This document shows, one piece after another, positions 6,556 through 52,954 of a DNA stretch of 64,000 nucleotides. The translations under genes and the position numbers were made by a program. The notes under the pieces were generated by a model. That model had not been told where the DNA came from. It made no database searches and worked only from the letters and a program-made list of their open reading frames with translations. Source of the stretch: Escherichia coli (GTDB lineage Bacteria > Pseudomonadota > Gammaproteobacteria > Enterobacterales > Enterobacteriaceae); the NCBI RefSeq assembly GCF_003790525.1, contig NZ_CP033635.1. One strand, written 5' to 3'. How positions within the stretch are numbered: position 1 is the first letter of the stretch; each line of letters begins with the position of its first letter.

Positions 6556-7381
6556 TGGTTAAAAATCGTACGGTGTTGGCAGTGCCAACAGTGGTTAAAA
6601 ATTGTGCGGTGTTGGCAGTGCCAACAGTGATTAAAAAATGTACGGTGTTGGCAGTGCCAACAGTGGTTAAAAATTGCGCGGTGTTGGCAGTGCCAACAGC
6701 GGTTAAAAAGTGTACGGCGTTGGCAGTGCCAACAGTGATTGAAAAATGTACGGTGTTGGCAGTGCCAACAGTGATTAAAAAATGTACGGTGTTGGCAGTG
6801 CCAACGGTGATTAAAAAATGTACGGTGTTGGCAGTGCCAACAGTGGTTAAAAATTGCGCGGTGTTGGCAGTGTCAACAGTGGTTAAAAATTGTGCGGTGT
6901 TGGCAGTGCCAACAGTGATTAAAAAATGTACGGTGTTGGCAGTGCCAACAGTGGTTAAAAATTGCGCGGTGTTGGCAGTGCCAACAGCGGTTAAAAAGTG
7001 TACGGCGTTGGCAGTGCCAACAGTGATTGAAAAATGTACGGTGTTGGCAGTGCCAACAGTGATTAAAAAATGTACGGTGTTGGCAGTGCCAACGGTGATT
7101 AAAAAATGTACGGTGTTGGCAGTGCCAACAGTGGTTAAAAATTGCGCGGTGTTGGCAGTGCCAACAGTGGTTAAAAATTGTGCGGTGTTGGCAGTGCCAA
7201 CAGTGATTAAAAAATGTACGGTGTTGGCAGTGCCAACAGCGGTTAAAAAGTGTACGGCGTTGGCAGTAGCAACAGCGATTAAAAAATGTACGGTGTTGCC
7301 AGTGGCAACAGTGGTTAAAAAGTGTCCGGCGTTGCCAGTGGCAACAGTGTTTGAAAATTGTACTGAGTTGGCACTGCCAAC
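6556..7381. repeat. tandem array of ~23 x 36-bp repeats, each with a 17-bp palindrome TGTTGGCA-G-TGCCAACA (iteron/centromere-like)
   Basis: Read directly: 36-bp period (palindromes at 6574-6590, 6610-6626, ...), unit GTTAAAAATTGYRCGG + palindrome; last copies carry symmetric variant TGTTGCCA-G-TGGCAACA. Confidence 0.9.
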
Positions 7382-7486
7382 ATGACGTAATTTCAGTCAT
7401 TCCTTTTTTTATTTTTGATTGTCAGATCTCCGTCTGCAGGCTGACTATTTCAGCCCGATATCCTTTTCTTTTGCCGGAGATATAAC

Positions 7487-8212
7487 ATGTCTGAAGAACA
7501 AATGAAGGAACCCGCATCCCGTCGTGTAGGTGCGCTTACTTCACCAGTGAATATCGAGTTGCACTCCCGTTATGCAATCATGCTGTGGGAAGGGAGACGA
7601 GGCACGAAAAGTAAAAGTGCTGAAGATCGCAGGGCAGCGAAAATAATGAGTATGCCGGAAGCTATTAAGATGACTGGCGGCCTCTACAGAGATTCTCTTG
7701 CTGATAATCCCTATGCGGATGAAACGATGTGGAAAGTTGAAAATGCGATTGTTGAGGCAACCGATAAAATTAATGCTGAAGTTCGTGTACTTGAAGGGAT
7801 CCTCAGAAATATTCCGTCAGTGATCACTGTCCGGGATGCTCTTTCTCGTTCTCCTGTCGATATTGGGGTTTTCAGCCGCTCTCCTCTGGGCTACCGCTGT
7901 GTATGGCTTCTTGTCGGGTATGATCAGCTTGCATTAAAAACGTTTCAGGCAGCACATCTGGGGCTTATTTCACGAAACAGGCGTGATGAGTTGTTGTCTT
8001 CTGGTGCGCATCTTATCCGCAAAATTTACGGTATTCTGCAGGGGTATCGCACTATGGCGGTAACTCGGGATGATATTGAGAATAAAACAGAAAAGGCAGA
8101 GAAAGCTATTGCCCGTTATGGTATGCCTCATGATGATATTCTATCCGGTAAGCTCAGATCTTCATTTTCTCCGCCCCTGAACCGTAAGTCCCGTGATGCA
8201 TCCCGGCAATGA
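7487..8212 (+). CDS. conserved ICE-associated protein
   Basis: 241-aa ORF between repeat array and topB; position conserved in this island class by recollection. Confidence 0.4.
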   Translation: MSEEQMKEPASRRVGALTSPVNIELHSRYAIMLWEGRRGTKSKSAEDRRAAKIMSMPEAIKMTGGLYRDSLADNPYADETMWKVENAIVEATDKINAEVRVLEGILRNIPSVITVRDALSRSPVDIGVFSRSPLGYRCVWLLVGYDQLALKTFQAAHLGLISRNRRDELLSSGAHLIRKIYGILQGYRTMAVTRDDIENKTEKAEKAIARYGMPHDDILSGKLRSSFSPPLNRKSRDASRQ

Positions 8213-8228
8213 CAGGTGAGGAGAATTC

Positions 8229-10247
8229 ATGCGTCTCTTTTTGTGTGAGAAACCTTCACAGGCCGGTGATATAGCCAGAGTACTTGGGGCTGCCAGACGT
8301 GTTGATGGTGCGATTGAAGGTAAGGACTTTGTTGTGACCTGGGCCTTTGGTCACTTGCTGGAGCAGGCGCCACCGGAGGCGTATGGTGAGCAGTTTGGCA
8401 GTCCCTGGAAAATTGACGTTTTGCCGGTCTTTCCTGAACAGTGGCAGATGGTGGTGAAGGATAATGTCGGGAAGCAGTTTAATGTGATCAGCCGCCTTCT
8501 CCGTAAGGCTGATGAAGTGGTGATTGCCACTGACGCCGATCGTGAAGGCGAAATTATCGCAAGGGAACTGCTGGATTATTGTGGTTATACCGGCGTTGTG
8601 CGCCGTCTCTGGCTGTCCGCACTGGATGAGAGCAGTATCAGGGAGGCGCTGGGCAGGATACTGCCCGGAGAGGAGACCGAGAAGTTATATGAAGCCGGTA
8701 AGGGACGCAGCCGGGCTGACTGGCTGACGGGGATCAACCTGACGCGTCTGTATACCCTGAAAGCCAGGGAGTGTGGTGTGTCCGGCGTCCTCTCTGTTGG
8801 CAGGGTGCAGACGCCCACGCTTGCGATGGTGGTCAGACGGGATGCAGAAATCAAAAATTTTATTCCGGTACCTTACTGGCAACTGTATCTCTGGCTGGAG
8901 AAGGACAATGTGCGTTTTCGTACCTCCTGGATTGCGGCAGCGCAGTACTGCGATACTGAAAAACGGTGTGTGAATGTGCAGGCGGCAACAGCCGTCCTGT
9001 CACAGTGTCGTCAGGCCGGTGTTGCTGTTGTCAGGGATGTCAGCAGCAGACGGGAGAAAAAGCAGCCTCCGCTGTGTTTTTCGCTCGGAACGCTGCAGGA
9101 GGTCTGTTCGCGCAAATTTGGCCTCGGCGCGCAGGCCGTTCTTGATATAGCCCAGTCGCTGTACGAAAAGCATAAGGCGACAACATATCCGCGTACAGAT
9201 TGCGGTTATCTGCCTGTGTCGATGTACAAAGAAGTGCCTGACGTACTGGCAGCGCTGGAAAAAACCGATCCGGATATTGCCCCGGAGCTGGCAAAACTCA
9301 GTCCTGATATTGTGTCGGGGATCTGGAACGACAGGAAGATCACCGCGCATCATGCGATAATCCCCACCCGTCAGCCGTTTAATATTGGGGCGCTGAGTGA
9401 TAATGAGCTTAAGGTGTACCGGTTAATTCGTCAGCATTATCTGGCTCAGTTTTTACCCGTTCAGGAGCTGGATGTCACAGAGGCCACTTTTCTTGTTGCG
9501 GGGCAGTTGTTTGGAACGCGGGGGCGAGTGGAGGTTGTCAGGGGATGGCGTGCGCTTTTTGTGTCAGATTCGGCGGGAGAGGAAGAGGATGTTGCAGACG
9601 ATGAGCAGGCGATGCCCCTTCCCGTACTGGCAAAAGGCGATGAATGTCGTCCTGCTGAAGCTGAACTCAAAGAGATGCAGACCACGCCACCGCGTCATTA
9701 TACGGAAGGCACGCTGATTGCGGCGATGAAAAACGCTGCGGGGATGGTGAGTGATCCGGCACTGAAAAAAGTGTTACGCGAAAATGCGGGGCTGGGCACT
9801 GAAGCGACCCGCGCAGAAATACTGGAAACGTTGTTCACCCGCAAATATATCGAGAAGCAGGGTAAGCATATCCGTGCCACGCAACTGGGGGCGGAGCTGA
9901 TAGCGGGATTGCCGGAGGCGCTGACCAGTCCGGGGACAACGGCGCTGTGGGAACAGGCTCTGGATGATATTGCACAGGGTAAACTGTCACTGTCGTCATT
10001 TATGGAAAAGCAGAAACAGTGGCTTAACCACCTGGTGGCCGGTGCAAGGCAGCAGCAACTGCAGATCACGGCACCGGTTACGCCGGCATGCCCTCTTTGT
10101 GGGAGCAGAATGCGGAAAGTGAAGATGAAAAGCGGGAAAGGGGAATTCTGGAGCTGCCAGCGTTATCCGGAGTGTAAGGGAGTGATTTCAGAGCAGAAAC
10201 CGACATCCGGGAAACGGGGCGGCAGAAAAATTAAAAAGCATGGATGA
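8229..10247 (+). CDS. topB: DNA topoisomerase III
   Basis: N-terminal Toprim motif MRLFLCEKPSQAGDIARVLGA, conserved topoisomerase IA core, C-terminal zinc ribbon CPLCGS...CQRYPEC. Confidence 0.9.
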   Translation: MRLFLCEKPSQAGDIARVLGAARRVDGAIEGKDFVVTWAFGHLLEQAPPEAYGEQFGSPWKIDVLPVFPEQWQMVVKDNVGKQFNVISRLLRKADEVVIATDADREGEIIARELLDYCGYTGVVRRLWLSALDESSIREALGRILPGEETEKLYEAGKGRSRADWLTGINLTRLYTLKARECGVSGVLSVGRVQTPTLAMVVRRDAEIKNFIPVPYWQLYLWLEKDNVRFRTSWIAAAQYCDTEKRCVNVQAATAVLSQCRQAGVAVVRDVSSRREKKQPPLCFSLGTLQEVCSRKFGLGAQAVLDIAQSLYEKHKATTYPRTDCGYLPVSMYKEVPDVLAALEKTDPDIAPELAKLSPDIVSGIWNDRKITAHHAIIPTRQPFNIGALSDNELKVYRLIRQHYLAQFLPVQELDVTEATFLVAGQLFGTRGRVEVVRGWRALFVSDSAGEEEDVADDEQAMPLPVLAKGDECRPAEAELKEMQTTPPRHYTEGTLIAAMKNAAGMVSDPALKKVLRENAGLGTEATRAEILETLFTRKYIEKQGKHIRATQLGAELIAGLPEALTSPGTTALWEQALDDIAQGKLSLSSFMEKQKQWLNHLVAGARQQQLQITAPVTPACPLCGSRMRKVKMKSGKGEFWSCQRYPECKGVISEQKPTSGKRGGRKIKKHG

Positions 10248-10514: not shown

Positions 10515-10815
10515 TTGACTTTATTTATGGCTGTTTTAAAAATGAGCATGCTAAATAGCTGCTTTGCAGCCAACCAATCTCCCGGTGGTCTGAGAGGGAG
10601 GCTTACGCGACCACACTGTCATCTTCGGATGACCAGCCAATGTTCCAGCAGTCTGAGAGGAGCGCCTTCGGGTGACTGCCAGCCAATGTTTCAGCGATCT
10701 GAGAGAAACGCCTTCGGGTGATTGCAATATCCTCGTAGCCTGAAAGGGGATGCCTTTATGGCGGTACATCCGTTTAGCCTCTGGGAACGGATATCACCAC
10801 TGGTGATTGAGGTAC
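10515..10815 (+). ncRNA. candidate structured RNA or ssDNA element with three hairpin modules (copy 1), unclassified
   Basis: -35-like TTGACT at 10515; modules at 10587-10612, 10649-10678, 10695-10724 each with outer stem, UGAGAG-rich internal loop and CGCC-UUCG-GGUG tetraloop stem; extra hairpin GTCATC-TTCG-GATGAC at 10618-10633. Confidence 0.45.
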
Positions 10816-33308: not shown

Positions 33309-33668
33309 ATGGCGATGACTCAGGGGACAAAAGCGGGGCTGGTCCTGAAGGGCATTAAGGTGGCCGGCATGTGGCTGTCGGGCCTTATTGCCATGATGAT
33401 TCTGGCCCTCCTGGTGGCTGATACGGGCATGCGGCATACGCAGGAAGTGGAAGCATTACGGCTCTGGCTCCACGAGACACGTTTCGGATGGCTGGGGTGG
33501 CGGGTGTGCCTCTACGGTGCGCTGGCATGGGGATGCCGGAAAATCTGGCGTGCGCCGGGGTTCAGACCGGAATACCGCCGTCCCTTTGCGCGGATTTGTC
33601 TGGTCAGTGCTCTGTTTGCGTTACTTTGCGAGTACAGCATTTTTTTCGGACCGGGGGCTGAACTGTGA
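33309..33668 (+). CDS. conserved ICE membrane protein
   Basis: ATG 33309 preceded by GGGGAG; two TM helices. Confidence 0.4.
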   Translation: MAMTQGTKAGLVLKGIKVAGMWLSGLIAMMILALLVADTGMRHTQEVEALRLWLHETRFGWLGWRVCLYGALAWGCRKIWRAPGFRPEYRRPFARICLVSALFALLCEYSIFFGPGAEL

Positions 33669-35173
33669 CCACGAATAACTATCTGGAACACTTTCTGACC
33701 CTGCTGGGCTGGCTGGTGAATAACGGCCTGTGGGATCTGCTGACGGGGACGGGGCTGTTTGCCCTGCCACTGGCCTTCAGGGTTATCGGGATCTGGCTGA
33801 AAGTGCGGGAAGAGGGGGCGGATGAGGGAAATAAAGGGATGCTCTCACTGCCCCGCATTGAGCATGCCCTGTATGGTGCATTTTTTGTGATGGTGGCCTG
33901 CTGTGTGCCGCTGGTACAGGTGACGCTGGACACGCTGAAATTTGATCGCAGCCGTGCCCAGACCTGCGGTGTGTGGACACCGAAAGCACCCGGTGATACC
34001 GGGTACAGCGGGGTGATCAGCAGCCTGGGTGACAGGACAGCGGCCGCCCCGGTGTGGTGGGTGGTGGTGCATAAACTCTCCAAAGGTGTGACGCAGGCTG
34101 CTGTGGCGTCCATTCCCTGCCGGCCGGATATACGGCAACTGCGTTTTGAGGTGCAGCGGACATTCATTGCGAACCGGGCGCTGGCCGACGAGCTGCAGGA
34201 CTTCACCAACGACTGTTACTCGCTGGCGCTGTATCAGTGGAAGCAGCGTGACCAGGGGATGACGAAGGACAGGAAGCTGCTTTCGGATATCAGCTGGATT
34301 GGCAGCAGTACGTTCATGCAGGGTGACTACGGGACACTGCAGTCGAAAATGCCACGTGCGGCATTCCCGTGGAATAGCGCCCGTGACAGCGGCCGTCCGG
34401 ATACGGGACGGGGGGGTTATCCCACATGCCGTGAATGGTGGAGTGACAGTAGTGTCGGGCTGAAGAAGCGGGTGACAGAGGAAGTTGATGAAGGACTGTG
34501 GTTACGTATTTCGGCGGCAATGAAAATGCTGGGGAACGCGCAGGCGAACTACCAGGAGGAAATCATCAAACGTCTGGTGAGTCCGGCGAACCTGACCCTG
34601 TCACAGGGGGGTGAGGTGTACCGTGGCTATGGCGGTAATGCAGATATGACGGCGGCGAATGCGGTCACGCGTGCAGCAGGCACGGCGGGTTCTGCCGTTG
34701 CTAGTCTGGCAGCGTTTCCGGCGTTTGATGCGATGCGGCAGGCGCTGCCGATGGTGCAGAGTATTCTGCTGATGGCGGTGTATATCATGCTCCCGTTGAT
34801 TCTGGCGTTTGCGGCGTATGAATTCAGCACGCTGATCACACTGACGTTTGTGGTGTTTGCACTGAATTTTCTGACGTTCTGGTGGGAGCTGGCGCGGTGG
34901 CTTGACAGCTGGATGCTGACGGCCTTGTACAGTTCGGACACGCATTCCCGAGTGAACATGATGGGGCTGCAGAATACGTCGGACGATATCATCATGAATT
35001 TTGTGATGGGCACGATGTTTATTGTATTGCCTACAGTATGGCTCGGAGCGTTAACATGGGCAGGGATTAGTGTTGGAAGTATTGGAGCAGCTATTGGCAA
35101 AGGTGTATCTGACGCACAACAAGCAGGAAAACAGGAAGGAAATATTGTCAATTTATTAAGTAGGAAAAAATAA
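33665..35173 (+). CDS. traG: TraG-like conjugal transfer membrane protein
   Basis: 502-aa polytopic membrane protein; last gene of the contiguous T4SS string. Confidence 0.65.
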   Translation: MTTNNYLEHFLTLLGWLVNNGLWDLLTGTGLFALPLAFRVIGIWLKVREEGADEGNKGMLSLPRIEHALYGAFFVMVACCVPLVQVTLDTLKFDRSRAQTCGVWTPKAPGDTGYSGVISSLGDRTAAAPVWWVVVHKLSKGVTQAAVASIPCRPDIRQLRFEVQRTFIANRALADELQDFTNDCYSLALYQWKQRDQGMTKDRKLLSDISWIGSSTFMQGDYGTLQSKMPRAAFPWNSARDSGRPDTGRGGYPTCREWWSDSSVGLKKRVTEEVDEGLWLRISAAMKMLGNAQANYQEEIIKRLVSPANLTLSQGGEVYRGYGGNADMTAANAVTRAAGTAGSAVASLAAFPAFDAMRQALPMVQSILLMAVYIMLPLILAFAAYEFSTLITLTFVVFALNFLTFWWELARWLDSWMLTALYSSDTHSRVNMMGLQNTSDDIIMNFVMGTMFIVLPTVWLGALTWAGISVGSIGAAIGKGVSDAQQAGKQEGNIVNLLSRKK

Positions 35174-35221
35174 ACAAGCTTTCAGCAGGAGGAGAATAAT
35201 AATTGCTTCTCCTGCTGAATA

Positions 35222-35467
35222 TTAATATCGATCGTATGAATTAACGATGTTGATGGGACCACCTTTTGATTCAATCCAGCCCTCGCTATCTCCATATGAC
35301 CGGATTTTTACAAGTTCAATATCGTTCTTGTTTTTTTCATTGCAAGTAGAGTCTGGTCCAGCGTTAGACAAAACCGCGCAAACAGCTTTTTTCAGCAGAG
35401 AGCTGAAAGTCCATGGGGTATCAGAGGTTTTGCAACTCCACATTGCTTTTTCTGTTTCATTGGTCAT
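35222..35467 (-). CDS. hypothetical small protein
   Basis: 81-aa ORF with AGGAGG RBS 6 nt upstream. Confidence 0.4.
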   Translation of the reverse strand: MTNETEKAMWSCKTSDTPWTFSSLLKKAVCAVLSNAGPDSTCNEKNKNDIELVKIRSYGDSEGWIESKGGPINIVNSYDRY

Positions 35468-35765
35468 CGCGTGCCTCCTGTAAGTGGATAATCATCCTGG
35501 TACTATCATACGTGTTGTATGATAAATGTTCAATGCTTGCGAATCCAGGTGTAATTGTCTGATTTTGCTCTTCCATTTGTACAGTTTGTGATGTGGGGCC
35601 GGACATGTCTCAGCATGTCACAATAGCTCCAGAAACTGCCGTCTCATCGTTACTGAACATAGTGTGATTAATTTTTAAAAATGTGAAAAGAATAATCTCT
35701 CTTTTTAGTCGTCCGGCTATGTCTTATATTCTCCCTGAATCAAACCCTGTATCAGGAGAAGCTGA

Positions 35766-36338
35766 ATGAAAATATCAAAACTGGTTGTTGTGGCTACAGT
35801 ATGCTCCACGCTGAGTGCATGTTCCGTGGAAGAGATGGCTGCTGTGAACAAGAAAATCAGTGACGGTGCATTTGCTGTGACGAAAGCGCTCAATGGGGGA
35901 ACGGGCGACGCGGATAATGGTATGCCGATCCTTAACAAGCAATTGCCGCCGGAGCAGGATAAACGCGAAAATGTTATTGATGTCCCTGTTGATGTGGATA
36001 CCGCAGCAGGCCGACTGAAACGCTATTACAAGTTTTACTCGAATGATGAGGTAAATGCGATCCGCAATAACGGCACAACTGACGGAAAATGGCAGGCAAG
36101 TGCGATTATTGACAATGGGCATATCTGGGATGCGATGCCGGGCAGTTACTACAAAATGGGAGGAAACTGGCGTAAAGGCAGCTTTGATGATCACCTGACG
36201 ATTGAGGTGGAAAAGAACGGTAAGGGAAGCCGGGTCTATATCACCTATGCTTCAGCTTCTCAGGCGCATTTGCAGGCAAGTTCTCTTGAGCCTCTGTTTA
36301 AGCGAGTGAAGGATGTGGCTGAAGGAAAGGTTCGTTGA
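35766..36338 (+). CDS. hypothetical lipoprotein
   Basis: Signal peptide with lipobox LSAC; AGGAGAAG RBS. Confidence 0.5.
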   Translation: MKISKLVVVATVCSTLSACSVEEMAAVNKKISDGAFAVTKALNGGTGDADNGMPILNKQLPPEQDKRENVIDVPVDVDTAAGRLKRYYKFYSNDEVNAIRNNGTTDGKWQASAIIDNGHIWDAMPGSYYKMGGNWRKGSFDDHLTIEVEKNGKGSRVYITYASASQAHLQASSLEPLFKRVKDVAEGKVR

Positions 36339-36562
36339 TGAGCACGCCACGGGCAAGCCCTTATGGCTAAAGGAGAGGGAGATTGCCCGTGGCGGCCCAC
36401 TTTTTTTAATCATTTTTTTACCATGTTGTCCAGTATTTTTACATAAGTGAAACATCTGGTGTTGTTTTCTGTTCATCGTGCTGGAAGTTACAGGGCTTGT
36501 AATTGAACGGGGAGAGATGTAATTTACGTGCGCAAAAATTTTACTCAAGGGGGAGAAAACCG

Positions 36563-36826
36563 ATGAAACCGAATATCCATCCTGAATACCGTACTGTGGT
36601 GTTCCACGATACCAGTATCGATGAGTACTATAAAATTGGTTCGACCATCAAGACTGAACGTGTGATTGAGCTTGATGGTGTCACCTATCCGTACGTAACA
36701 ATTGATGTTTCCTCTAAGTCGCATCCTTTCTACACTGGCAAACTGAGAACTGTTGCTTCAGAAGGTAACGTGGCGCGCTTTAACCAGCGTTTCGGTCGTT
36801 TTGTTGACACCAAAAAAGGCGCATGA
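36563..36826 (+). CDS. rpmE2: 50S ribosomal protein L31 type B (zinc-independent paralog)
   Basis: [18 protein letters not shown]...[19 protein letters not shown] matches YkgM-type L31; in frame within track ORF 36503..36826. Confidence 0.8.
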
Positions 36827-41593: not shown

Positions 41594-41890
41594 TTGAAGT
41601 TTTATGCAGTTTGTGCTTACAATTTAAACGCTAACTTGTCGCTTCGGCGACCACCAATGTTCCATGTGGCCTGTGAGGAACGCCTTCGGGTGGCCCACGT
41701 CGCTCCGGCGACCACCAATGCTTCATCTGACCTGTGAGGAGCGCCTTCGGGTGGTCAGTTTTACACCTCCTGAGCCTGAAAGGAGCTGTGCGTGCTGAAG
41801 GGATATGTTCCCGGAAGTACGGGCAAATCTGCGCACCTTTGAGAGCAGATGTCACTGCGGTTTTCCGTGATGATGAAGGCTTTTTTATCA
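41594..41890 (+). ncRNA. candidate structured RNA or ssDNA element, two modules (copy 3, divergent)
   Basis: TTGAAG (41594) and TACAAT (41618) promoter-like pair; two modules with stems GUGGCC/GGCCCAC and CUGACC/GGUCAG around UGUGAGGA-CGCC-UUCG-GGUG; T-run near 41881. Confidence 0.4.
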
Positions 41891-43228: not shown

Positions 43229-43368
43229 CTGTCTTTGTTCATGGCTTTTCAACAGACCGTTATGCTTTCGCCACCACATGGTAAGGCGGGTCTGATTTTA
43301 CTGTTAACCGTACGGTTCACTCTCATACCGTACGGTGGGAGTGAACCCTTTTCATTAAGGACACTCTC

Positions 43369-43878
43369 ATGAAAACGAAAACTTCTGCACCTGCTGTATA
43401 TGTTGGTACCTGGGCTAAATACAACAATGGCAGCATAGAAGGATGCTGGTTTAATGATTTAACCGTTTTTGAAACTGAAAGCGATTTTTTATCTGCGGCC
43501 CGTAAGTTTCATCAGGATGAAAAAGATCCTGAATTTATGTACCAGGATTATGAAAACTTTCCTTCGGGAATGGCTTCAGAATATGGTTTCAACTGGGCTT
43601 ATGTTGAAGGTTATCGTCTTGCCCGTGAAGAAGGCTGTGAAGATGCATGGTATGCATGGGTTTCTAATACCGGTGATACCTGTTTCGAACAGTTCAGGGA
43701 GGCGTGGCTTGGTGGTCCTTATGACAGTGAACTCGAGTTCGCCGCGCAGTACGTGGATGAATGCGGTTTTCTGTCAGAGGTACCTGATACTGTTGCACGC
43801 TATTTTGATTATGAGGCTTTTGCGCGCGATTTGTTCATGGAACTGGATTTTGTCGACGGACACGTTTTCCATCGGTAA
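43369..43878 (+). CDS. ardA: antirestriction protein ArdA (DNA-mimic, anti-Type I R-M)
   Basis: Motifs AVYVGTWAKYNNGSI, DPEFMYQDYE and C-terminal ARYFDYEAFARDLFM match ArdA family; very acidic. Confidence 0.85.
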   Translation: MKTKTSAPAVYVGTWAKYNNGSIEGCWFNDLTVFETESDFLSAARKFHQDEKDPEFMYQDYENFPSGMASEYGFNWAYVEGYRLAREEGCEDAWYAWVSNTGDTCFEQFREAWLGGPYDSELEFAAQYVDECGFLSEVPDTVARYFDYEAFARDLFMELDFVDGHVFHR

Positions 43879-44074
43879 CTCACAGCCATGAGGGCGCATA
43901 TAAGCCGTGTACTGGCGGATGTGATTTCAGCATACATTCTGCTGGTTTTTTTACCGTTGTTGACAATTTTAATCATCGCGGATGAACAACCTGAACTCTG
44001 TTGTTCACCGCCCGGAGGCATCGTTCCTTCGGACGGTGTGCTCTTTCATCAGAAAGAATCAGACAGGGGGTTTT

Positions 44075-46519: not shown

Positions 46520-49435
46520 TTACTGAGTCAGTTTTTTTATCAGGTCGTGAATTTTATCACCTGAAAACTGGGTCATGAAAGTTATCTTTATGGATTTACT
46601 GATTTGTTCGAAGAGTTTCTGTGCATGTTTTATTTTATCGCGTTCTTCATGTCTGAGTTCACGTTTGCCATCAACATTTTTGGTTTCAATAATAAGGTTC
46701 AGATAATCACCCTTTGACGTGTTTACAACATAAGCGAAGTCAGGGGAGTAAGTGTATCCTCCCGCTACAGGAATTTTTATTGAATTTTTGGGGATCTTTG
46801 TGAAGACAATGACTGACCTGACCTCACCCTCTGTCATATTGAGTTTTTCAAGTTCTGAATCATAAAATACTTCTTCAAAAAGATAAGAGTCCAGTGGAGG
46901 GCTTGTATTATCCTGTAAAACGCCAAGATCACTTGACAATACATCAGCAAGATAACCGCCGTCTGCATTGGTGAATTTCGTGGGATGGACAGTTCCTGAT
47001 ATTACATTATACCCAAGGCTGAATTTACTGAACGAGTTATTAAGCAAATACTTGCTGAAACCAGATTTAATTTTTCTGATTGTCTGAATGTTAAGGTATT
47101 CAGTTATATTTATGATGTCTTTTATATCACAAAAAACCTTATGCATGGTGTCATGTTTGACAAAAATAGTCTGTGATAATTTATCAAGGAATTCACGATA
47201 GCTCATTGTGTTTATTTTGTGAAAATTATCCTCATCAACACTGAGAATGCTTTTCGACATTGCCGTATCATTATGGATATAAATTCTTTCAATACGAGTA
47301 TGAGCACCGGATTTGGTAAATCTGTCTGCTTCTTCCAGCATAAACGCTCTGAAAAGGGATAAAAACTCACGTTCACTTTTTATTTTATACTCAATCACGA
47401 CCTTTTGATTGATCAAGTCCCATAGTTCTTTCAGCTCACTGAACTTACCAACACGCATTTTAGTGCGTCTTTTTCCATCAGAGGCTTTTTTTATTTTGCC
47501 TGGTTTCACTCCTGCAGGAAATGCTGCCGGATATCTGGCTTTTAAGCGGCTATAGGCATCTGAATCTTTGAAGTTATCATTATCATCAATGATCTCATCA
47601 TCAAAAATTTCATTCAAGAGTGTTCTGGAGGAAAGCTCCGGATATTGAGACAGGATTTTATCCTTAAGTTCCTGAGTAAACTTACCTGGAACAGTCTCTT
47701 TGAAAGAACTATCGTTGATCTCTTTGACAAGAGAATCGACAAAATCTTTTTCTGTAAAATCAACATAATAGTTGAGGGTAAAATTGCGGTCTTTCACACG
47801 ACACATGTATTCATTCACCGGAAGACGTAAACCACGCCCTACTTCCTGAAGTTTAGATGTGGTGCTACCGCTCGAACGGAGCTTACAAATCTGAAAGACA
47901 TTTGGGTTATCCCATCCCTCACGCAACGTCCATTTAGAGAAAATGAAACGGCGAGGATTTTCTAAAGACAATAGAAGCTCTTTATCATGAAGGATTTCGT
48001 TGATTTCCTGCTCAATTTTATCATCTTTATCACTATTATCTTTTGAAAAATAACCACCATGAACAGAAGATATATCCTTAACAGTTTTTTCAAGGTAGTT
48101 TCTGTAAAACTCATCTTTTTCTGTTTTTAACAGTTCATTTGCTTCTGCCAAAACGTATTCTTCGAACTTAGTTTTCAGGCTTCCTGCAATATCATTACCA
48201 TCACGATAGCCTTCAATGTCATCAATGAAGAAAAGAGTAAGAGGTTTTATGCGTGGCCTTTGTGTCAGATACTCTTTTTCTAACTTAAAGTGTTCTTTGA
48301 CAGCTTTACGTATCATGTTATCAGCAAGTGTCTGATCGTAAGAATAGGGGTTTATCGAACTACCAATTTTTAGCTCAATACCATTACTCAACACTGCTGT
48401 ATTCTTATTTAAAGCATCAAGAGTTAAATCATGGATCGCACTATGCGTCTTAGATAGTGATTCACCTTTGGCTAACTTAAAAATTTTTTTATTATTATTT
48501 TCGTTCAGTTCAAATGTAGCTTCTTTTCCGTCAGATTTGACCAACTTGAGGTTGGCATTACCATCACCAACTATATCCTCAATGTATGCATCAATACCTT
48601 TAACAAGATCTTCATTGAAGGCATCTACGGCTGTAAGACGATAAACTAAGTTCTTATAGCCTTCACTAAAGGTTGCACCATAGCGGATGATATATTGGGC
48701 ATTAAATTTTTGAATATGTTCCCATGTCTTTTTACCAGTAGGAAATTTATGAGGCTCATCAATGATAATGAATGGTTTTATCGCACTAAGTGCAGAAAAT
48801 GGGGTATCAAACTGATTATTAAGCAAGCCAACATCATAAGTGTCAGTTAAAGACTTAGAGTTAATCATCCCTGAATTGATCACAAGAATGTGTATATATT
48901 TCTTATTGAAATTACTTGCTTCAACAAAATCATGGATAGCTTGAGGCATATACGATTTTGTATTTTTACCCGAACGTTTCTGACTTTCAACAACGTAAGT
49001 CTTTAGTTCACGCTCGTAATCATCTCGAAAGTGTTCTTTTATAGCATCGCTTTTTAAAAAGTTAACGGTTCCGGCTTTGATCGATAGGGTAGGAACAATG
49101 ATGATAAACTTGTTAATACCAAATGATTTGTTCAGGTCAAAAATTGTTTTGGTGTAAGTATAAGTTTTACCTGTACCTGTCTCCATAGAAACATCAATTA
49201 CGTTGCTTTTAGCATCGTAATTATCTTTTGAGTGCTCAATACCATTGAACTCCTGAACATTTTTTATGTTGTTGTAGTATTGTTGTTCAGATAGATTCAG
49301 TTCTGGATTAGCTAACAGGCGAATTGCAACATGATCCGTCTGATGAGGTATGGCGGATACAAAGACATTCATTACCGAATCAACGCCAGCCTTTTGATGA
49401 GGTAAATTTTTTTCGAATGTGAACCCTTTAGACAT
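46520..49435 (-). CDS. res: Type III restriction endonuclease subunit Res
   Basis: SF2 helicase motifs METGTGKTYT and IIIDEPHKF; C-terminal PD..(E)xK-like YSPDFAYVV...IIETK; directly downstream of mod; AT-rich. Confidence 0.85.
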   Translation of the reverse strand: MSKGFTFEKNLPHQKAGVDSVMNVFVSAIPHQTDHVAIRLLANPELNLSEQQYYNNIKNVQEFNGIEHSKDNYDAKSNVIDVSMETGTGKTYTYTKTIFDLNKSFGINKFIIIVPTLSIKAGTVNFLKSDAIKEHFRDDYERELKTYVVESQKRSGKNTKSYMPQAIHDFVEASNFNKKYIHILVINSGMINSKSLTDTYDVGLLNNQFDTPFSALSAIKPFIIIDEPHKFPTGKKTWEHIQKFNAQYIIRYGATFSEGYKNLVYRLTAVDAFNEDLVKGIDAYIEDIVGDGNANLKLVKSDGKEATFELNENNNKKIFKLAKGESLSKTHSAIHDLTLDALNKNTAVLSNGIELKIGSSINPYSYDQTLADNMIRKAVKEHFKLEKEYLTQRPRIKPLTLFFIDDIEGYRDGNDIAGSLKTKFEEYVLAEANELLKTEKDEFYRNYLEKTVKDISSVHGGYFSKDNSDKDDKIEQEINEILHDKELLLSLENPRRFIFSKWTLREGWDNPNVFQICKLRSSGSTTSKLQEVGRGLRLPVNEYMCRVKDRNFTLNYYVDFTEKDFVDSLVKEINDSSFKETVPGKFTQELKDKILSQYPELSSRTLLNEIFDDEIIDDNDNFKDSDAYSRLKARYPAAFPAGVKPGKIKKASDGKRRTKMRVGKFSELKELWDLINQKVVIEYKIKSEREFLSLFRAFMLEEADRFTKSGAHTRIERIYIHNDTAMSKSILSVDEDNFHKINTMSYREFLDKLSQTIFVKHDTMHKVFCDIKDIINITEYLNIQTIRKIKSGFSKYLLNNSFSKFSLGYNVISGTVHPTKFTNADGGYLADVLSSDLGVLQDNTSPPLDSYLFEEVFYDSELEKLNMTEGEVRSVIVFTKIPKNSIKIPVAGGYTYSPDFAYVVNTSKGDYLNLIIETKNVDGKRELRHEERDKIKHAQKLFEQISKSIKITFMTQFSGDKIHDLIKKLTQ

Positions 49436-49437
49436 GA

Positions 49438-51474
49438 TTAGTTCCTTACCACCAAATCTAAATCAATAGATTTTTTATTAGCATAACTTTTTAGTGCTTC
49501 ATTGAGTTCCATCTGTTTCGCACTTTCGAAGTTGCTGCCATAAAATACAACTTTGTTAGGGGCAAAGTCTTTGTCTGCATCCAGCTTTTGAAGTAAAGCT
49601 TTCAAAGCCTCACTTGTGAAATTAGGCGCAATTAGATATAGCCGACCATCGCACAAGTGTGCTTTGTAGCCATTAAGGTCAATATCTTCAATTGGTGTTG
49701 TTAGCAAGCTGCCATCATACACGCACCATGTCGTCAATAGAGTGTCATACTGCTCTGGTGTCAATACAGCATCGTCAAAGAAACTAAGATTAGAAAGCGT
49801 AAGTTCAGACTCATCTTTCACTCGAAAATTATGAACTGTTTCAAATATTTTAAATCCCAAATCTCCATTATAATTAGGATTATCTTTTTTCAGCTTTTTT
49901 CCTGCCTTAATAATTCTGTCTTTTGTTATATTGAAGATGGATTTATACCCTTCTTTATAGGCTTGTTTCTTTTTATCTGTTTCTTCATCTAATTGAACAC
50001 AGATGAAGTTTCTTTTCCTGCCGTCTTCAATATTTAACTCCAGAATACCATGAGCTGTAGTTCCAGAGCCAGCAAAAAAGTCAAGATAAATGTCTTTATC
50101 TTCGGCTTTTACTGAACCAAATAGTGTTTTTATTAAACTTGTTGGCTTCGGGTAGGAGAAATATCCTTTCCCACCAAAAAGATTTTCAACCTCAACACCA
50201 CCATCACTTTTAGTTGAAATAATTGATCTTAGTAAAAACTCTTCAACTTCATCTAAAAATTTAACCGAACTGGGTTGGGTGTTTTCTGTACTGGCAAACC
50301 AAATTCCACCACAAATAACGCTACCATCATGTAGTTTTTTGATATCTGCATACTTTCCATCTATTCTTTTTGCAATATGATTAAAAGTGCCTTCTTTCCA
50401 ACGCCAGCCTCTGTCTGGGATTTTGACAGGGTTATTAGTCAAAGGGTGCAATACTTCATACGTGGGTCCAAATGAATCTGCATTAGGCCAGCTCATATTA
50501 ATTTTACCCCATGGCCTATAATCTTCGTTCAAACAGTTGTAAAGAGTAATTCCACGATCATATCCGTTGGAGCTGTAGAATTTTTTGAGTTGCTGCTCTG
50601 CTTTATCTAATGGCACCTTCTCCTTTTTTAACTTTTCAATAAACTGATATACATCATCAATACCATCTTTCCGCATTAAAAATTCTTTACTTATTTCGTT
50701 ATTCTTCGCATAAGCAAGGATGTACTCATGGATATTACCAATACCCTTATCATTTTTAGGGATACGTTTATTCCATACAATATTTTCTATGAAATTTGCT
50801 TCGCCAAAAATTTCATCACAAATAGTTTTAAGTTGATTTAATTCATTTTCGTCAATCGAAATAAATATCACACCATCTTCACGTAGAAGCTCACGAGCAA
50901 TATATAAACGAGGATAAATGAACGTTAACCATGCGCTATGGCTGCTTGAACCATTCGTGGTAAATTCAAGTATACGTTTAGCCTCATCAAGATCGATACC
51001 TGCCAGATCAGAAAGCTGTTCAGGTGTAAACTTGCGATCATCGTTATAGGCGAATCCATCCTTACCTGTATTGTATGGTGGATCAATGTAAATCATCTTC
51101 ACCTTTTCAGAGTAAGCATTAACCATATGCTTCAATACTTCGAGGTTATCCCCTTTGATTAACAGATTCTGACTGTTTTTGTTCTCTTCACGTTGGTTAT
51201 GGTCTTTATCTTCGGAGAGTAATGTCTTCGGCGGCAAGTTAGCTAACAGACGGGCATAGGATTTACCAAGCCAGTTCAGGCTGTATGATTCTTTGGAGAG
51301 TTCAACATCCGATGATTTGACGATTTCAAGCAATTTTTCCTGAATGAACGCTCCATTTTTATCAAAACACTGTGGAAAGTTAGCCTTTAAAATCGCAAGC
51401 TGTTTACTGTTTGTGGTTTCAGTTTCAGAGAAAAGAGTTTCTTTTTTCAGTTGAAATTGGGGTTGTGTATTCAT
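49438..51474 (-). CDS. mod: Type III R-M N6-adenine methyltransferase Mod
   Basis: DPPY motif (IYIDPPYNTG) before FxGxG motif (LDFFAGSGTTAHG); N-terminus resembles EcoP15I-type Mod; GGAGGT RBS. Confidence 0.88.
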   Translation of the reverse strand: MNTQPQFQLKKETLFSETETTNSKQLAILKANFPQCFDKNGAFIQEKLLEIVKSSDVELSKESYSLNWLGKSYARLLANLPPKTLLSEDKDHNQREENKNSQNLLIKGDNLEVLKHMVNAYSEKVKMIYIDPPYNTGKDGFAYNDDRKFTPEQLSDLAGIDLDEAKRILEFTTNGSSSHSAWLTFIYPRLYIARELLREDGVIFISIDENELNQLKTICDEIFGEANFIENIVWNKRIPKNDKGIGNIHEYILAYAKNNEISKEFLMRKDGIDDVYQFIEKLKKEKVPLDKAEQQLKKFYSSNGYDRGITLYNCLNEDYRPWGKINMSWPNADSFGPTYEVLHPLTNNPVKIPDRGWRWKEGTFNHIAKRIDGKYADIKKLHDGSVICGGIWFASTENTQPSSVKFLDEVEEFLLRSIISTKSDGGVEVENLFGGKGYFSYPKPTSLIKTLFGSVKAEDKDIYLDFFAGSGTTAHGILELNIEDGRKRNFICVQLDEETDKKKQAYKEGYKSIFNITKDRIIKAGKKLKKDNPNYNGDLGFKIFETVHNFRVKDESELTLSNLSFFDDAVLTPEQYDTLLTTWCVYDGSLLTTPIEDIDLNGYKAHLCDGRLYLIAPNFTSEALKALLQKLDADKDFAPNKVVFYGSNFESAKQMELNEALKSYANKKSIDLDLVVRN

Positions 51475-51531
51475 AACGCACCTCCAGAATGCACGGAGGT
51501 ACTTGACGCGGAATTTTTATACAGGCATATT

Positions 51532-51659
51532 GTTGCGTTGCGTTGCGTTGCGTTGCGTTGCGTTGCGTTGCGTTGCGTTGCGTTGCGTTGCGTTGCGTTG
51601 CGTTGCGTTGCGTTGCGTTGCGTTGCGTTGCGTTGCGTTGCGTTGCGTTGCGTTGCGTT
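51532..51659. repeat. pentanucleotide simple-sequence repeat (GCGTT)n, ~25 copies, 58-185 nt upstream of mod start
   Basis: Read directly: uninterrupted gttgc/gcgtt tract from about 51532 to 51659. Confidence 0.95.
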
Positions 51660-51740
51660 TCATTAAATAGCCTCGAGTTTCGTTTTACAGGTTTTTATTC
51701 TAACCTGAATTGTTGATTTTCTGAATAAGTCTGACGTCAG

Positions 51741-51900
51741 TTGTTACGGGAAGGTATCAGAGTGGCTAGATGCACTGTGGCACGTCTCATGGCGGTTATG
51801 GGGCTTGCCGGCGTTCTCCGGGGGGTAAAGCTCCGTGCTACTGTCACCTGGAACGCCGTTGCCGCAGGCGACCGCGTAAACCGTCTGTACCGCCCGGGCC
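51741..51900 (+). pseudogene. IS3-family transposase fragment
   Basis: Translation REGIRVARCTVARLMAVMGL resembles IS3-family OrfB N-terminal region; no integrase core follows. Confidence 0.35.
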
Positions 51901-51940
51901 CAATATTAAGAACTAACGTCATACCAGGGACGTTGTCTGA

Positions 51941-52954
51941 ATGGATGAGAAGCTAAAACATGCGGATTTATCGTCTTTGCCAGAGCAGGTGAGGGTTGCC
52001 GCTAGGGAGCTTGTTGACCTGAAGTTTCGTATCGATATGGCAGCAAGAGGCGGTACGTCAGGGATACCACTTGACCTGCATGGGAGGATGACAGGAGGAG
52101 AATGGGGGCCGCATTGCGGGCTGGAATTTTTCTGCAGCATCATTCCTTTTTTCCCGCGAGATTTTGAAACCTGTTCAGTAACTGAAATGTTGGTTCCTAC
52201 CTTACATACCTTCGGCTGCAACTGGCGTTGGTGGCCCGATCGTTATTGTAGCGACAAAGATGAACACTATATACGGCGTCACATTTTTTCTGATTACGGG
52301 CTGAAAAGTACGAGCTATACCTTCATTCCTCAGTTGGGATTGTTCTGCCCGAGTGAAGGTAAAAATCGTGTTAACTTCTGCCGCCATCACGGTATCGAAT
52401 ATATCCCCGCACAGGTTTATTCCCATGATTACCCAGAAGCAAATCGAATCTCTGTGTACGTTCAGGATACTGCCGGAGGGCTGGATGTGTGGGCCGTTCT
52501 TGATAATCGCTATGTTCAGAAGGTTACTCACTATGCCTTTGCGCTCCCACTTTTGTGCGCTTATGGGGTAGAGTTCCCAGGTAAGTGGCCAGCAGGATGG
52601 CCATCGATATCGGACCTCCTGGCTAATCAACTGTGTTGCACTGATGACACAACCTTTCATAAACCCGTGATCGATATGCAAGCTGTCAGGGATACGCTGG
52701 ATCGTGATGAGAACAGCAGAGAGGATGGGGAGATGTATGTCAAAACCAATGTGGTTGAGCTGCCGCTGGCCGGGCTGGTTCGCTTCATTCTGATCGCAAT
52801 GTTACTGAGTTTAGGTGCGTTGTTCATCCACGAGGTACTGGATGAGGGAAGCCTGTCCAGGATTGCACTGGGAATAAGCACTTTCACGGCTGGCGTGGTT
52901 GCTTCGTTTTTTATCCCAGCGTTCCGTATCAAGAAAAAATATCTTCGCAAATAG
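51941..52954 (+). CDS. hypothetical protein with two C-terminal TM helices
   Basis: 337-aa ORF, Cys/Trp/His-rich soluble domain, hydrophobic helices near residues 280-330. Confidence 0.4.
   Translation: MDEKLKHADLSSLPEQVRVAARELVDLKFRIDMAARGGTSGIPLDLHGRMTGGEWGPHCGLEFFCSIIPFFPRDFETCSVTEMLVPTLHTFGCNWRWWPDRYCSDKDEHYIRRHIFSDYGLKSTSYTFIPQLGLFCPSEGKNRVNFCRHHGIEYIPAQVYSHDYPEANRISVYVQDTAGGLDVWAVLDNRYVQKVTHYAFALPLLCAYGVEFPGKWPAGWPSISDLLANQLCCTDDTTFHKPVIDMQAVRDTLDRDENSREDGEMYVKTNVVELPLAGLVRFILIAMLLSLGALFIHEVLDEGSLSRIALGISTFTAGVVASFFIPAFRIKKKYLRK

Follow-up and report, generated by a model that had tools for sequence, protein, structure and literature searches.

The analysed window, a 64,000-bp stretch of the Escherichia coli contig NZ_CP033635.1 (assembly GCF_003790525.1), carries an intact restriction-modification (R-M) system of Type III, encoded by the genes mod (methyltransferase) and res (restriction endonuclease), and a long pentanucleotide repeat tract is located directly upstream of mod. 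The initial annotation of this DNA had proposed the tract as a candidate phase-variation switch of an R-M system carried by an integrative and conjugative element (ICE). We analysed the tract, the sequence separating it from mod and the corresponding regions of 11 other complete E. coli genomes (designated L001-L011), which together with the window constitute a comparison set of 12 sequences. The features identified are presented in Table 1.

The mod-res operon and its leader region

The predicted Mod protein can be aligned with the EcoP15I methyltransferase (PDB 4zcf_A; E = 7e-242; residues 9-678 of Mod on 1-644), contains the Pfam domains N6_N4_Mtase (PF01555; 1.4e-33) and T3RM_EcoP15I_C (PF18273; 3e-34), and matches the PADLOC model MTase_III with 770 bits. 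Res is recognised by NCBIfam PRK15483 (1073.8 bits; cut-off 564) and PADLOC REase_III (1600 bits). The start codon of res is placed 2 nt past the stop codon of mod. Judged from its sequence, the locus, with a Mod subunit and an adjacent Res, belongs among the Type III R-M systems, and it resembles the EcoP15I and EcoP1I systems in the alignment of Mod over residues 9-678 and in the order mod then res. The open reading frames (ORFs) of both genes are intact, in agreement with their earlier description.

Table 1. Features of the mod-res locus and of related loci. Coordinates refer to the window unless a contig is named; 12/12 denotes the comparison set.
Feature	Coordinates	Strand	Basis
res, Type III restriction endonuclease, 971 aa, intact	46520..49435	-	ORF, NCBIfam, PADLOC
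mod, EcoP15I-like Type III N6-adenine methyltransferase, 678 aa, intact	49438..51474	-	ORF, PDB, Pfam, PADLOC
Stop codon (TGA) of frame-C upstream ORF, 47-49 nt inside mod	51425..51427	-	L002, L003
ATGA; mod ATG (51474..51472) shares two bases with frame-B TGA (51473..51471)	51471..51474	-	sequence, frame analysis
Predicted 9-bp hairpin GUACCUCCG-(7 nt)-UGGAGGUGC over mod Shine-Dalgarno sequence GGAGG (51485..51481)	51478..51502	-	fold, shuffles
Putative upstream ORF, 48 codons in the window; ATG 51663..51661, stop TAA 51519..51517 (frame A)	51517..51663	-	translation, frame analysis
Pentanucleotide tract (AACGC)25.6 (+ strand: GCGTT)	51532..51659	-	Tandem Repeats Finder, direct reading
Shine-Dalgarno sequence GAGG of upstream ORF, 7 nt before ATG	51671..51674	-	sequence; kept in 12/12 copies
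Candidate sigma-70 promoter TTCAGA-N17-TAGAAT	51697..51725	-	consensus scan; identical in 12/12 copies
Internal fragment of IS3-family transposase gene, bordering the leader	~51727..51888	+	thousands of IS3 copies align with this segment of the query alone; annotations
Conserved small gene before mod in relatives	L091 2120-2482; L092 2198-2482; upstream of L012, L017, L018, L020, L030, L090	n/a	comparison of upstream regions

The tract was reported by Tandem Repeats Finder as an array with a period of 5, 25.6 copies, 100% matches, no indels and a score of 256, which confirms the initial count of about 25 uninterrupted copies. It is the sole short-period array of such kind in the 64 kb, and a perfect 128-nt tract with a period of 5 nt cannot have originated by chance. 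Its near end is located 58 nt from the mod ATG (57 nt lie between them), and the previously indicated distance is consistent with the ORF coordinates. As RNA, the tract contains 40% C and 20% G and is predicted to be unstructured (z = +4.8, empty centroid structure). An Rfam search yielded only two matches, both to eukaryotic microRNAs and both below threshold.

The mod-strand sequence preceding the tract reads GAGG-ctattta-ATG-A, and the first repeat starts 1 base past this ATG. The run of AACGC units contains no stop codon in any mod-strand frame, and every frame reads (NATQR)n. Because an ATG led by a Shine-Dalgarno (SD) sequence (GAGG-N7-ATG, 51674..51661) is present at its edge and no frame contains a stop, the tract appears to constitute the body of a small leader ORF (upstream ORF; uORF) with its own SD and start codon. 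The initial annotation had placed the tract outside coding sequence; it lies within this leader ORF, though not in mod. The NCBI annotation pipeline PGAP reports the uORF as a coding sequence (CDS) for a hypothetical protein in 5 genomes.

A consensus scan of both strands of the region revealed two sigma-70-like sites, compared with 0.5 expected. The only one on the mod strand is the candidate promoter TTCAGA-N17-TAGAAT, located upstream of both the uORF and the tract, and no -35/-10 pair was detected by the scan between the tract and mod. The tract would then lie in the transcribed leader, and not between promoter elements. The other site, TTGACG-17-CATATT (51503-51531), is on the opposite (+) strand and is directed into the tract, beyond which a weak terminator-like hairpin is found on the same strand (51688-51707). 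Together, these consensus matches could give rise to a short antisense RNA of variable length, mostly (GCGUU)n, with perfect complementarity to the leader ORF.

The region between the tract and mod is predicted to form a 9-bp hairpin (-12.5 kcal/mol, z = -4.1), and none of 200 shuffled sequences folded into an equally stable structure. The whole GGAGG of mod lies within the predicted hairpin, so that the downstream SD would be buried, and no element other than this hairpin persists in the centroid structures of the 87-nt and the 251-nt leaders. The strong ribosome-binding site (RBS) and the overlapping CCTCC..GGAGG inverted repeat described in the initial annotation were thus confirmed, and fold as this hairpin. 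The sole natural stem variant among the 12 copies is a U>C change in L009, which converts the closing G.U pair into G-C (stronger pairing).

The motif TGCGTT, located just before the mod ATG (51475-51480, - strand), is the exact complement of AACGCA of the tract. This complementarity is probably coincidental because the motif is changed to TGCATT in 4 of the 11 genomes (L006, L008, L010, L011), and pairing between the tract and this motif, not being conserved, was dismissed.

Length variation of the tract and the frames of the leader ORF

Of the 5,426 complete E. coli genomes searched by megablast with window positions 51300-52000, 11 were found to carry the locus. The carrier isolates include avian-pathogenic, poultry-meat, Shiga toxin-producing (STEC) and commensal E. 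coli. The tract lengths in the 11 genomes are 38, 68, 98, 128, 148, 153, 168, 173, 188, 188 and 238 nt, corresponding to 7.6 to 47.6 copies; the repeat number, whose invariance would have counted against the initial proposal, therefore differs among isolates. Since each of these lengths is congruent to 3 modulo 5, the differences represent whole repeat units, and not sequencing noise.

Seven copies of the locus (the window, L001-L005 and L007) are near-identical, with at most 3 substitutions in the 3,230 nt of the mod-side flank and none in the 330 nt on the other side, yet they contain tracts of six distinct lengths. Tract length evolves far faster than point mutations accumulate in the flanks, and therefore displays the signature of a contingency locus. 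The tract is hypermutable, as is apparent from this variation between isolates. It is also nearly pure: a single interruption (C>A, L007) was found in the approximately 340 repeat units of the 12 sequences. As in phase-variable mod genes, the locus thus contains a mod-associated simple sequence repeat (SSR) whose copy number varies among strains.

In other isolates, the same ATG opens ORFs of 18-100 codons, ending at one of three positions, which are determined by the 57 nt separating the tract from the mod ATG: (i) in frame A (copies modulo 3 = 1; the window, L004, L005, L006 and L008-L011) the uORF ends at a TAA 42 nt upstream of the mod ATG, (ii) in frame B (copies modulo 3 = 2; L001 with 47 and L007 with 29 copies) the leader is wholly open and the TGA overlaps the mod ATG within ATGA, and (iii) in frame C (copies modulo 3 = 0; L002 with 30 and L003 with 33 copies) the uORF continues past the mod start to a TGA 47-49 nt inside mod, and the annotation of both genomes gives it as a CDS that overlaps mod. 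Counted from the mod ATG, the ends are thus at -42, +4 and about +50, respectively. The frame-B strains are APEC E19035 (47 copies) and GF60 (29), the frame-C strains are GF43 (30) and CM2 (33), and those in frame A include Br_112_kylling (13), 2015C-3121 (19), and 2013C-3033 and SCU-171 (37 each). A leader stop overlapping the downstream start is present in frame B only, and not in the frame of the window. All 12 sequences share the TAA, the ATGA overlap and the TGA within mod. Ribosomes terminating at the frame-A TAA would be at least 13 nt upstream of the hairpin stem, which those reading in frame B or C would have to unwind. Eight of the sequences are in frame A, two in frame B and two in frame C; all three frames occur within the near-identical set.

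Frame A is continuous with the frame of mod, yet in 12/12 sequences it is closed by the TAA (51519..51517). The tract is therefore not located within the mod ORF. The classical in-ORF mechanism of phase variation is excluded, because the conserved TAA blocks in-frame read-through into mod, and the placement of the repeats inside mod was also rejected for frames B and C, which are out of frame with the gene.

Damaged R-M systems were found in 3 of the 7 frame-A genomes, namely TUM1886 (L005; res frameshifted), STEC2018-553 (L008; IS1 inserted at mod codon ~9) and FDAARGOS_1300 (L009; mod frameshifted). These three inactivations are independent of one another.

Proposed frame-dependent coupling and its alternatives

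It is very probable that the tract regulates mod-res. We consider the best explanation to be slipped-strand phase variation, acting through frame-dependent translational coupling via the leader ORF, and we hold it with about even confidence, because the pattern was recognised post hoc. Translation of the uORF, a limiting effect of the hairpin on initiation at mod, and the matching of frames to the ON and OFF states are inferred.

According to this model, transcription would begin upstream of the tract, at a predicted position of about 51690, and ribosomes would initiate at the SD-led ATG and read the (AACGC)n run as (NATQR)n. The frame in which they exit the tract would shift with every 5-nt unit gained or lost. 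Those in frame A, the frame of the window, would stop at the TAA 42 nt before mod, too far away to open the hairpin; little Mod would be produced, and this state is predicted to be OFF or basal. Restriction would cease or fall as well, since Res depends on Mod and the untranslated mod message may suffer Rho-dependent polarity affecting res. In frame B, ribosomes would melt the hairpin and terminate at ATGA, with GGAGG 6 nt upstream. This geometry is the classical one of termination-reinitiation, and the predicted state is ON. Ribosomes in frame C would read through the hairpin and stop inside mod, opening the initiation site intermittently, and an intermediate or ON state is predicted. Re-initiation at closely spaced stop and start sites is established in E. 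coli (PMC2268962), and short upstream ORFs, studied as synthetic constructs, boost translation in this species (PMC13255528). With slightly less than even confidence, we propose that the locus may represent a three-state (OFF/ON/intermediate) heritable translational switch of a complete R-M barrier, possibly with a phasevarion, on an E. coli ICE.

Three other explanations were considered. The initial annotation had proposed that the repeat number alters the spacing of promoter elements. A transcriptional switch, in which the copy number shifts the spacing or an upstream activating element of the mod promoter, would belong to a known class, since SSRs within or upstream of promoters do act as phase switches, and a TATAAA motif is present just downstream of the tract (51521..51516, - strand). 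This explanation is very improbable. The promoter-spacing version is not supported, because the candidate promoter is upstream of the tract and the tract is 38-238 nt long, whereas a spacer has 16-18 nt; the consensus scan placed the SSR neither between a -35 and a -10 element nor upstream of a mod-strand promoter. If TATAAA served as a -10 element, its -35 would fall in the last repeats, which are the same at any copy number, and the spacing would be constant. The candidate phase-variation switch of an intact mod-res operon on an ICE gained support from the different copy numbers in near-identical isolates, and only its promoter-spacing mechanism was lost; the alternative named in the same annotation, a change in leader structure at the RBS hairpin, comes near the mechanism that we favour.

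Length might also act in a frame-independent, graded manner, if the unstructured C-rich leader served for ribosome standby, for the loading of Rho or for RNA stability. The predicted lack of structure and the C-rich composition of the tract RNA are consistent with such tuning, as is the wide range of natural tract lengths (38-238 nt). [quoted passage not shown] Starting 1 base past an SD-led ATG, the tract is expected to be covered by ribosomes rather than free. Graded tuning also leaves the arrangement of stops (TAA, ATGA and the stop at +47) unexplained, and the repeats lack a downstream hairpin partner, their sole complementarity (TGCGTT) being lost in 4 of 11 genomes. We regard it as distinctly unlikely. 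A neutral origin, in which the tract is a hypermutable microsatellite in a leader created by an insertion sequence (IS)-associated rearrangement, its length has no meaningful effect and the geometry is coincidental, is unlikely. The module is rare and limited to E. coli, several carriers have an inactivated mod or res, the frame bias is not significant, and the uORF/ATGA geometry has a chance expectation of about 5%, all of which would be compatible with neutrality. It is opposed by the fact that long perfect pentanucleotide tracts are abnormal for E. coli DNA (this one being alone in 64 kb), by the near purity of the tracts, by the position of the SD-led ATG exactly at the tract edge together with the buried SD downstream, and by the association of the same module with at least two mod specificity alleles.

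Several points weigh against frame-dependent coupling. As a chance control, the first 46 nt of the 57-nt leader were shuffled 3,000 times while the SD was kept in place. In 4.8% of the shuffles, the mod frame had an early stop, a frame stayed open up to ATGA and the SD was fully paired (<= -12 kcal/mol), all at once; a buried SD of comparable stability occurred in 22%. The uORF/ATGA/hairpin architecture, itself recognised post hoc, is thus only modestly unlikely by chance (~5%); the SD-led ATG exactly at the tract edge, for its part, makes a coincidence less likely still. A strong SD beside a long unstructured leader could permit standby initiation whatever the frame (PMC5934652). The leaders differ by 2-3 substitutions per 57 nt, a divergence too small for a covariation test of the hairpin. 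Among the 10 distinct tract lengths, 6 correspond to frame A, 2 to B and 2 to C, which is not significantly different from a uniform distribution. The occurrence of damaged mod or res genes in frame A would fit an OFF state with relaxed selection, and equally a decaying locus. Finally, because the module is found only in E. coli, no deep conservation argues for its function.

Origin of the leader, related systems and the surrounding ICE

Besides the 11 complete genomes, the leader-tract module, whose leader can be recognised by the pattern GTACCTCCGTGCATTCYGGAGGTGCRTTATGAAT, was found in one low-quality NCBI assembly and one metagenome contig. A metagenome scan with the hairpin-plus-start pattern returned this single contig, L098 (SKEW01001349.1, positions 850-900), with 3.6 copies, probably a tract collapsed by short-read assembly, as Atack et al. 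cautioned for the STEC locus (PMC5909438). Since short-read assembly probably collapses the tract, draft assemblies are unsuited to frame scoring. A protein-database search with the uORF product gave one match, in an indel-ridden E. coli assembly with mod and res in short fragments, which was not used. In PLSDB, matches were limited to the coding part of mod (from query base 177 on) and the leader was not found. Viral contigs searched with (AACGC)5 gave four unrelated loci, none of them linked to mod.

The AACGC tract or an equivalent leader was also absent from 79 mod relatives of other species (one-genome-per-species contigs); a notable SSR near mod was detected in only two of them, GAACACA x6 (L032) and GA x12 (L069). 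The 5′ region of mod shares 84-90% DNA identity with relatives on P1-like plasmids and tRNA-Asn islands. Neither the tract nor the leader was found in mod relatives of Citrobacter, Klebsiella, Providencia, Pectobacterium, E. coli (G47-1; tRNA-Asn islands), P1-like plasmids or marine gammaproteobacteria.

The module is joined to divergent R-M genes. The mod and res genes of L009-L011 differ from the window type by approximately 580-625 substitutions in 3.2 kb, while identity reaches 98.9% over a stretch made up of the 5′ end of mod, the leader and some 130 nt on the far side of the tract. The mod allele of L010 and L011 is intact and encodes 653 aa (678 aa in the window); that of L009 is frameshifted. 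One leader is thus combined with at least two mod specificity (target recognition domain; TRD) alleles, as is typical of phase-variable mod genes.

In 7 of the 8 upstream regions of relatives that were read, mod is preceded by a conserved gene for a protein of 94-120 aa, with no tract. This gene has no Pfam match and only a weak, sub-threshold ParC-like NCBIfam match. In enterobacterial relatives, it ends 11 nt before the mod ATG, where the mod RBS is only a weak AGGT; in two marine relatives (L012, L030) it ends ~30-60 nt before the mod start. In the P1-like plasmid L093, the gene upstream of mod is a different one, ~160 nt away. These comparisons suggest that the small gene is an unrecognised third gene of this Type III branch, possibly translationally coupled to mod, and the close spacing of its stop and the mod start may be ancestral in the EcoP15I-like family. 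The homology of the window mod with its relatives starts near codon 10 (KETLFSE). By this comparison, the upstream gene and the first ~3 mod codons were replaced by the promoter, the uORF with its tract, the hairpin and a new N-terminus (MNTQPQFQLK) of 11 codons, with a net gain of 8 residues. The locus therefore differs from most EcoP15I/EcoP1I relatives, which have the conserved small gene before mod and no tract. The IS3-family fragment beyond the tract, reported earlier and confirmed here, marks the rearrangement that put the leader before mod.

In many host-adapted pathogens, Type III methylases subject to phase variation rewire the expression of genes and the susceptibility to phages or plasmids; repeat-driven phase variation is rare in E. 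coli. Known phase-variable Type III mod genes include modA, modB and modD (Haemophilus, Neisseria), modM, modH, modS, and the STEC gene encoding M.Eco131I, with CAGCGAC[n] inside the annotated ORF, the first and so far the only one described in E. coli (Atack et al., PMC5909438). The unit AACGC/GCGTT is mentioned neither in that survey (PMC5909438) nor among the repeat units in the literature searched. The present locus resembles phasevarion mod genes in having (i), at the 5′ end of the mod locus, an SSR that is long, pure and of strain-variable copy number, (ii) TRD alleles behind a conserved 5′ region, and (iii) a unit length that is not a multiple of 3, so that each slip shifts the frame. 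In the described cases, however, the repeats are reported to lie within the mod ORF as annotated and slippage truncates Mod, while here it would affect the initiation of an unaltered Mod through a leader ORF. By its sequence, the locus would thus behave like a phase-variable mod without the defining in-ORF tract, and its anatomy fits leader-ORF coupling. Because Res is intact, the whole R-M barrier would switch, and not a regulon alone.

A repeat-bearing upstream ORF controlling the next gene is also found in H. influenzae, where a GCAA SSR is located in the small upstream gene lex2A and the downstream gene, lex2B, codes for the enzyme responsible for the phenotype (PMC3116884, PMC6479036). 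The two loci differ in organism, repeat and class of controlled gene. The dependence of lex2B on lex2A is reportedly due to translational coupling, which we treat as a lead rather than a tested parallel; to our knowledge, neither an SD-burying hairpin nor an ATGA overlap is known there. Leader-peptide translational coupling that unmasks a buried RBS is familiar from tap-repA of plasmid R1 and repY-repZ of IncI and IncB plasmids. These share with the present locus a short upstream ORF with its own SD, a downstream SD in a hairpin, and a stop at or overlapping the start; their leader translation is modulated by antisense RNA or constitutive, in contrast to the heritable, reversible frame change by a DNA repeat proposed here. 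In hmw1A of H. influenzae, (ATCTTTC)n repeats of the 5′ UTR fold into a long hairpin, which RNase III processes, and their length has a graded effect (PMC12721329). That locus also has a transcribed repeat of widely varying copy number and post-transcriptional action (proposed in our case), but no structure is predicted for the AACGC tract, which lies in a putative translated ORF. The literature searched on phase variation combined with translational coupling, leader peptides or upstream ORFs described no such switch for a mod gene, and the words coupling, leader and UTR are absent from a 2025 review of phase variation.

If the proposed mechanism is correct, this is the second candidate phase-variable mod in E. 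coli after that of STEC M.Eco131I, and a simple natural three-state translational switch. Surveys limited to repeats within annotated mod ORFs would miss such a locus, which suggests that phase-variable genes may be under-counted where repeats are placed in unannotated small ORFs. A switchable restriction barrier on an ICE would change which DNA the host can accept, with a bearing on epidemiology and horizontal gene transfer.

The location on an ICE, indicated previously, was confirmed by synteny with strain TUM1886, whose corresponding region is annotated with TIGR037xx ICE proteins, TraD and TraG; the window represents an ICE of the TIGR037xx/PFL_46xx type and shares the TUM1886 backbone at 95-99.6% identity. 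By synteny with L099 (33559-36680, 43369-43878), window positions ~33500-36700 and 43300-43900 contain cargo of the same ICE. The cargo comprises an EcoRI-family adenine methyltransferase with an HNH endonuclease (a second R-M-like pair), a CcdA/CcdB toxin-antitoxin system and the ArdA antirestriction protein. The iha adhesin/siderophore receptor gene is present in TUM1886 and missing from the window.

Other repeats are found elsewhere in the window. Positions 6556-7382 contain 23 tandem copies of a 36-bp unit (89% matches), each with the palindrome GTTGGCAGTGCCAAC. This array begins where the homology to the TUM1886 gene for the STY4528-family ICE replication protein ends, and positions 6564-8229 have no counterpart at the equivalent place in TUM1886. 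It resembles an iteron or centromere-like array to which a replication or partition protein of the ICE would bind. Two further tandem repeats, each of two copies, are located at positions 10633-10725 (46-nt unit) and 41638-41754 (61-nt unit), and have the motif AACGCCTTCGGGTG in common.

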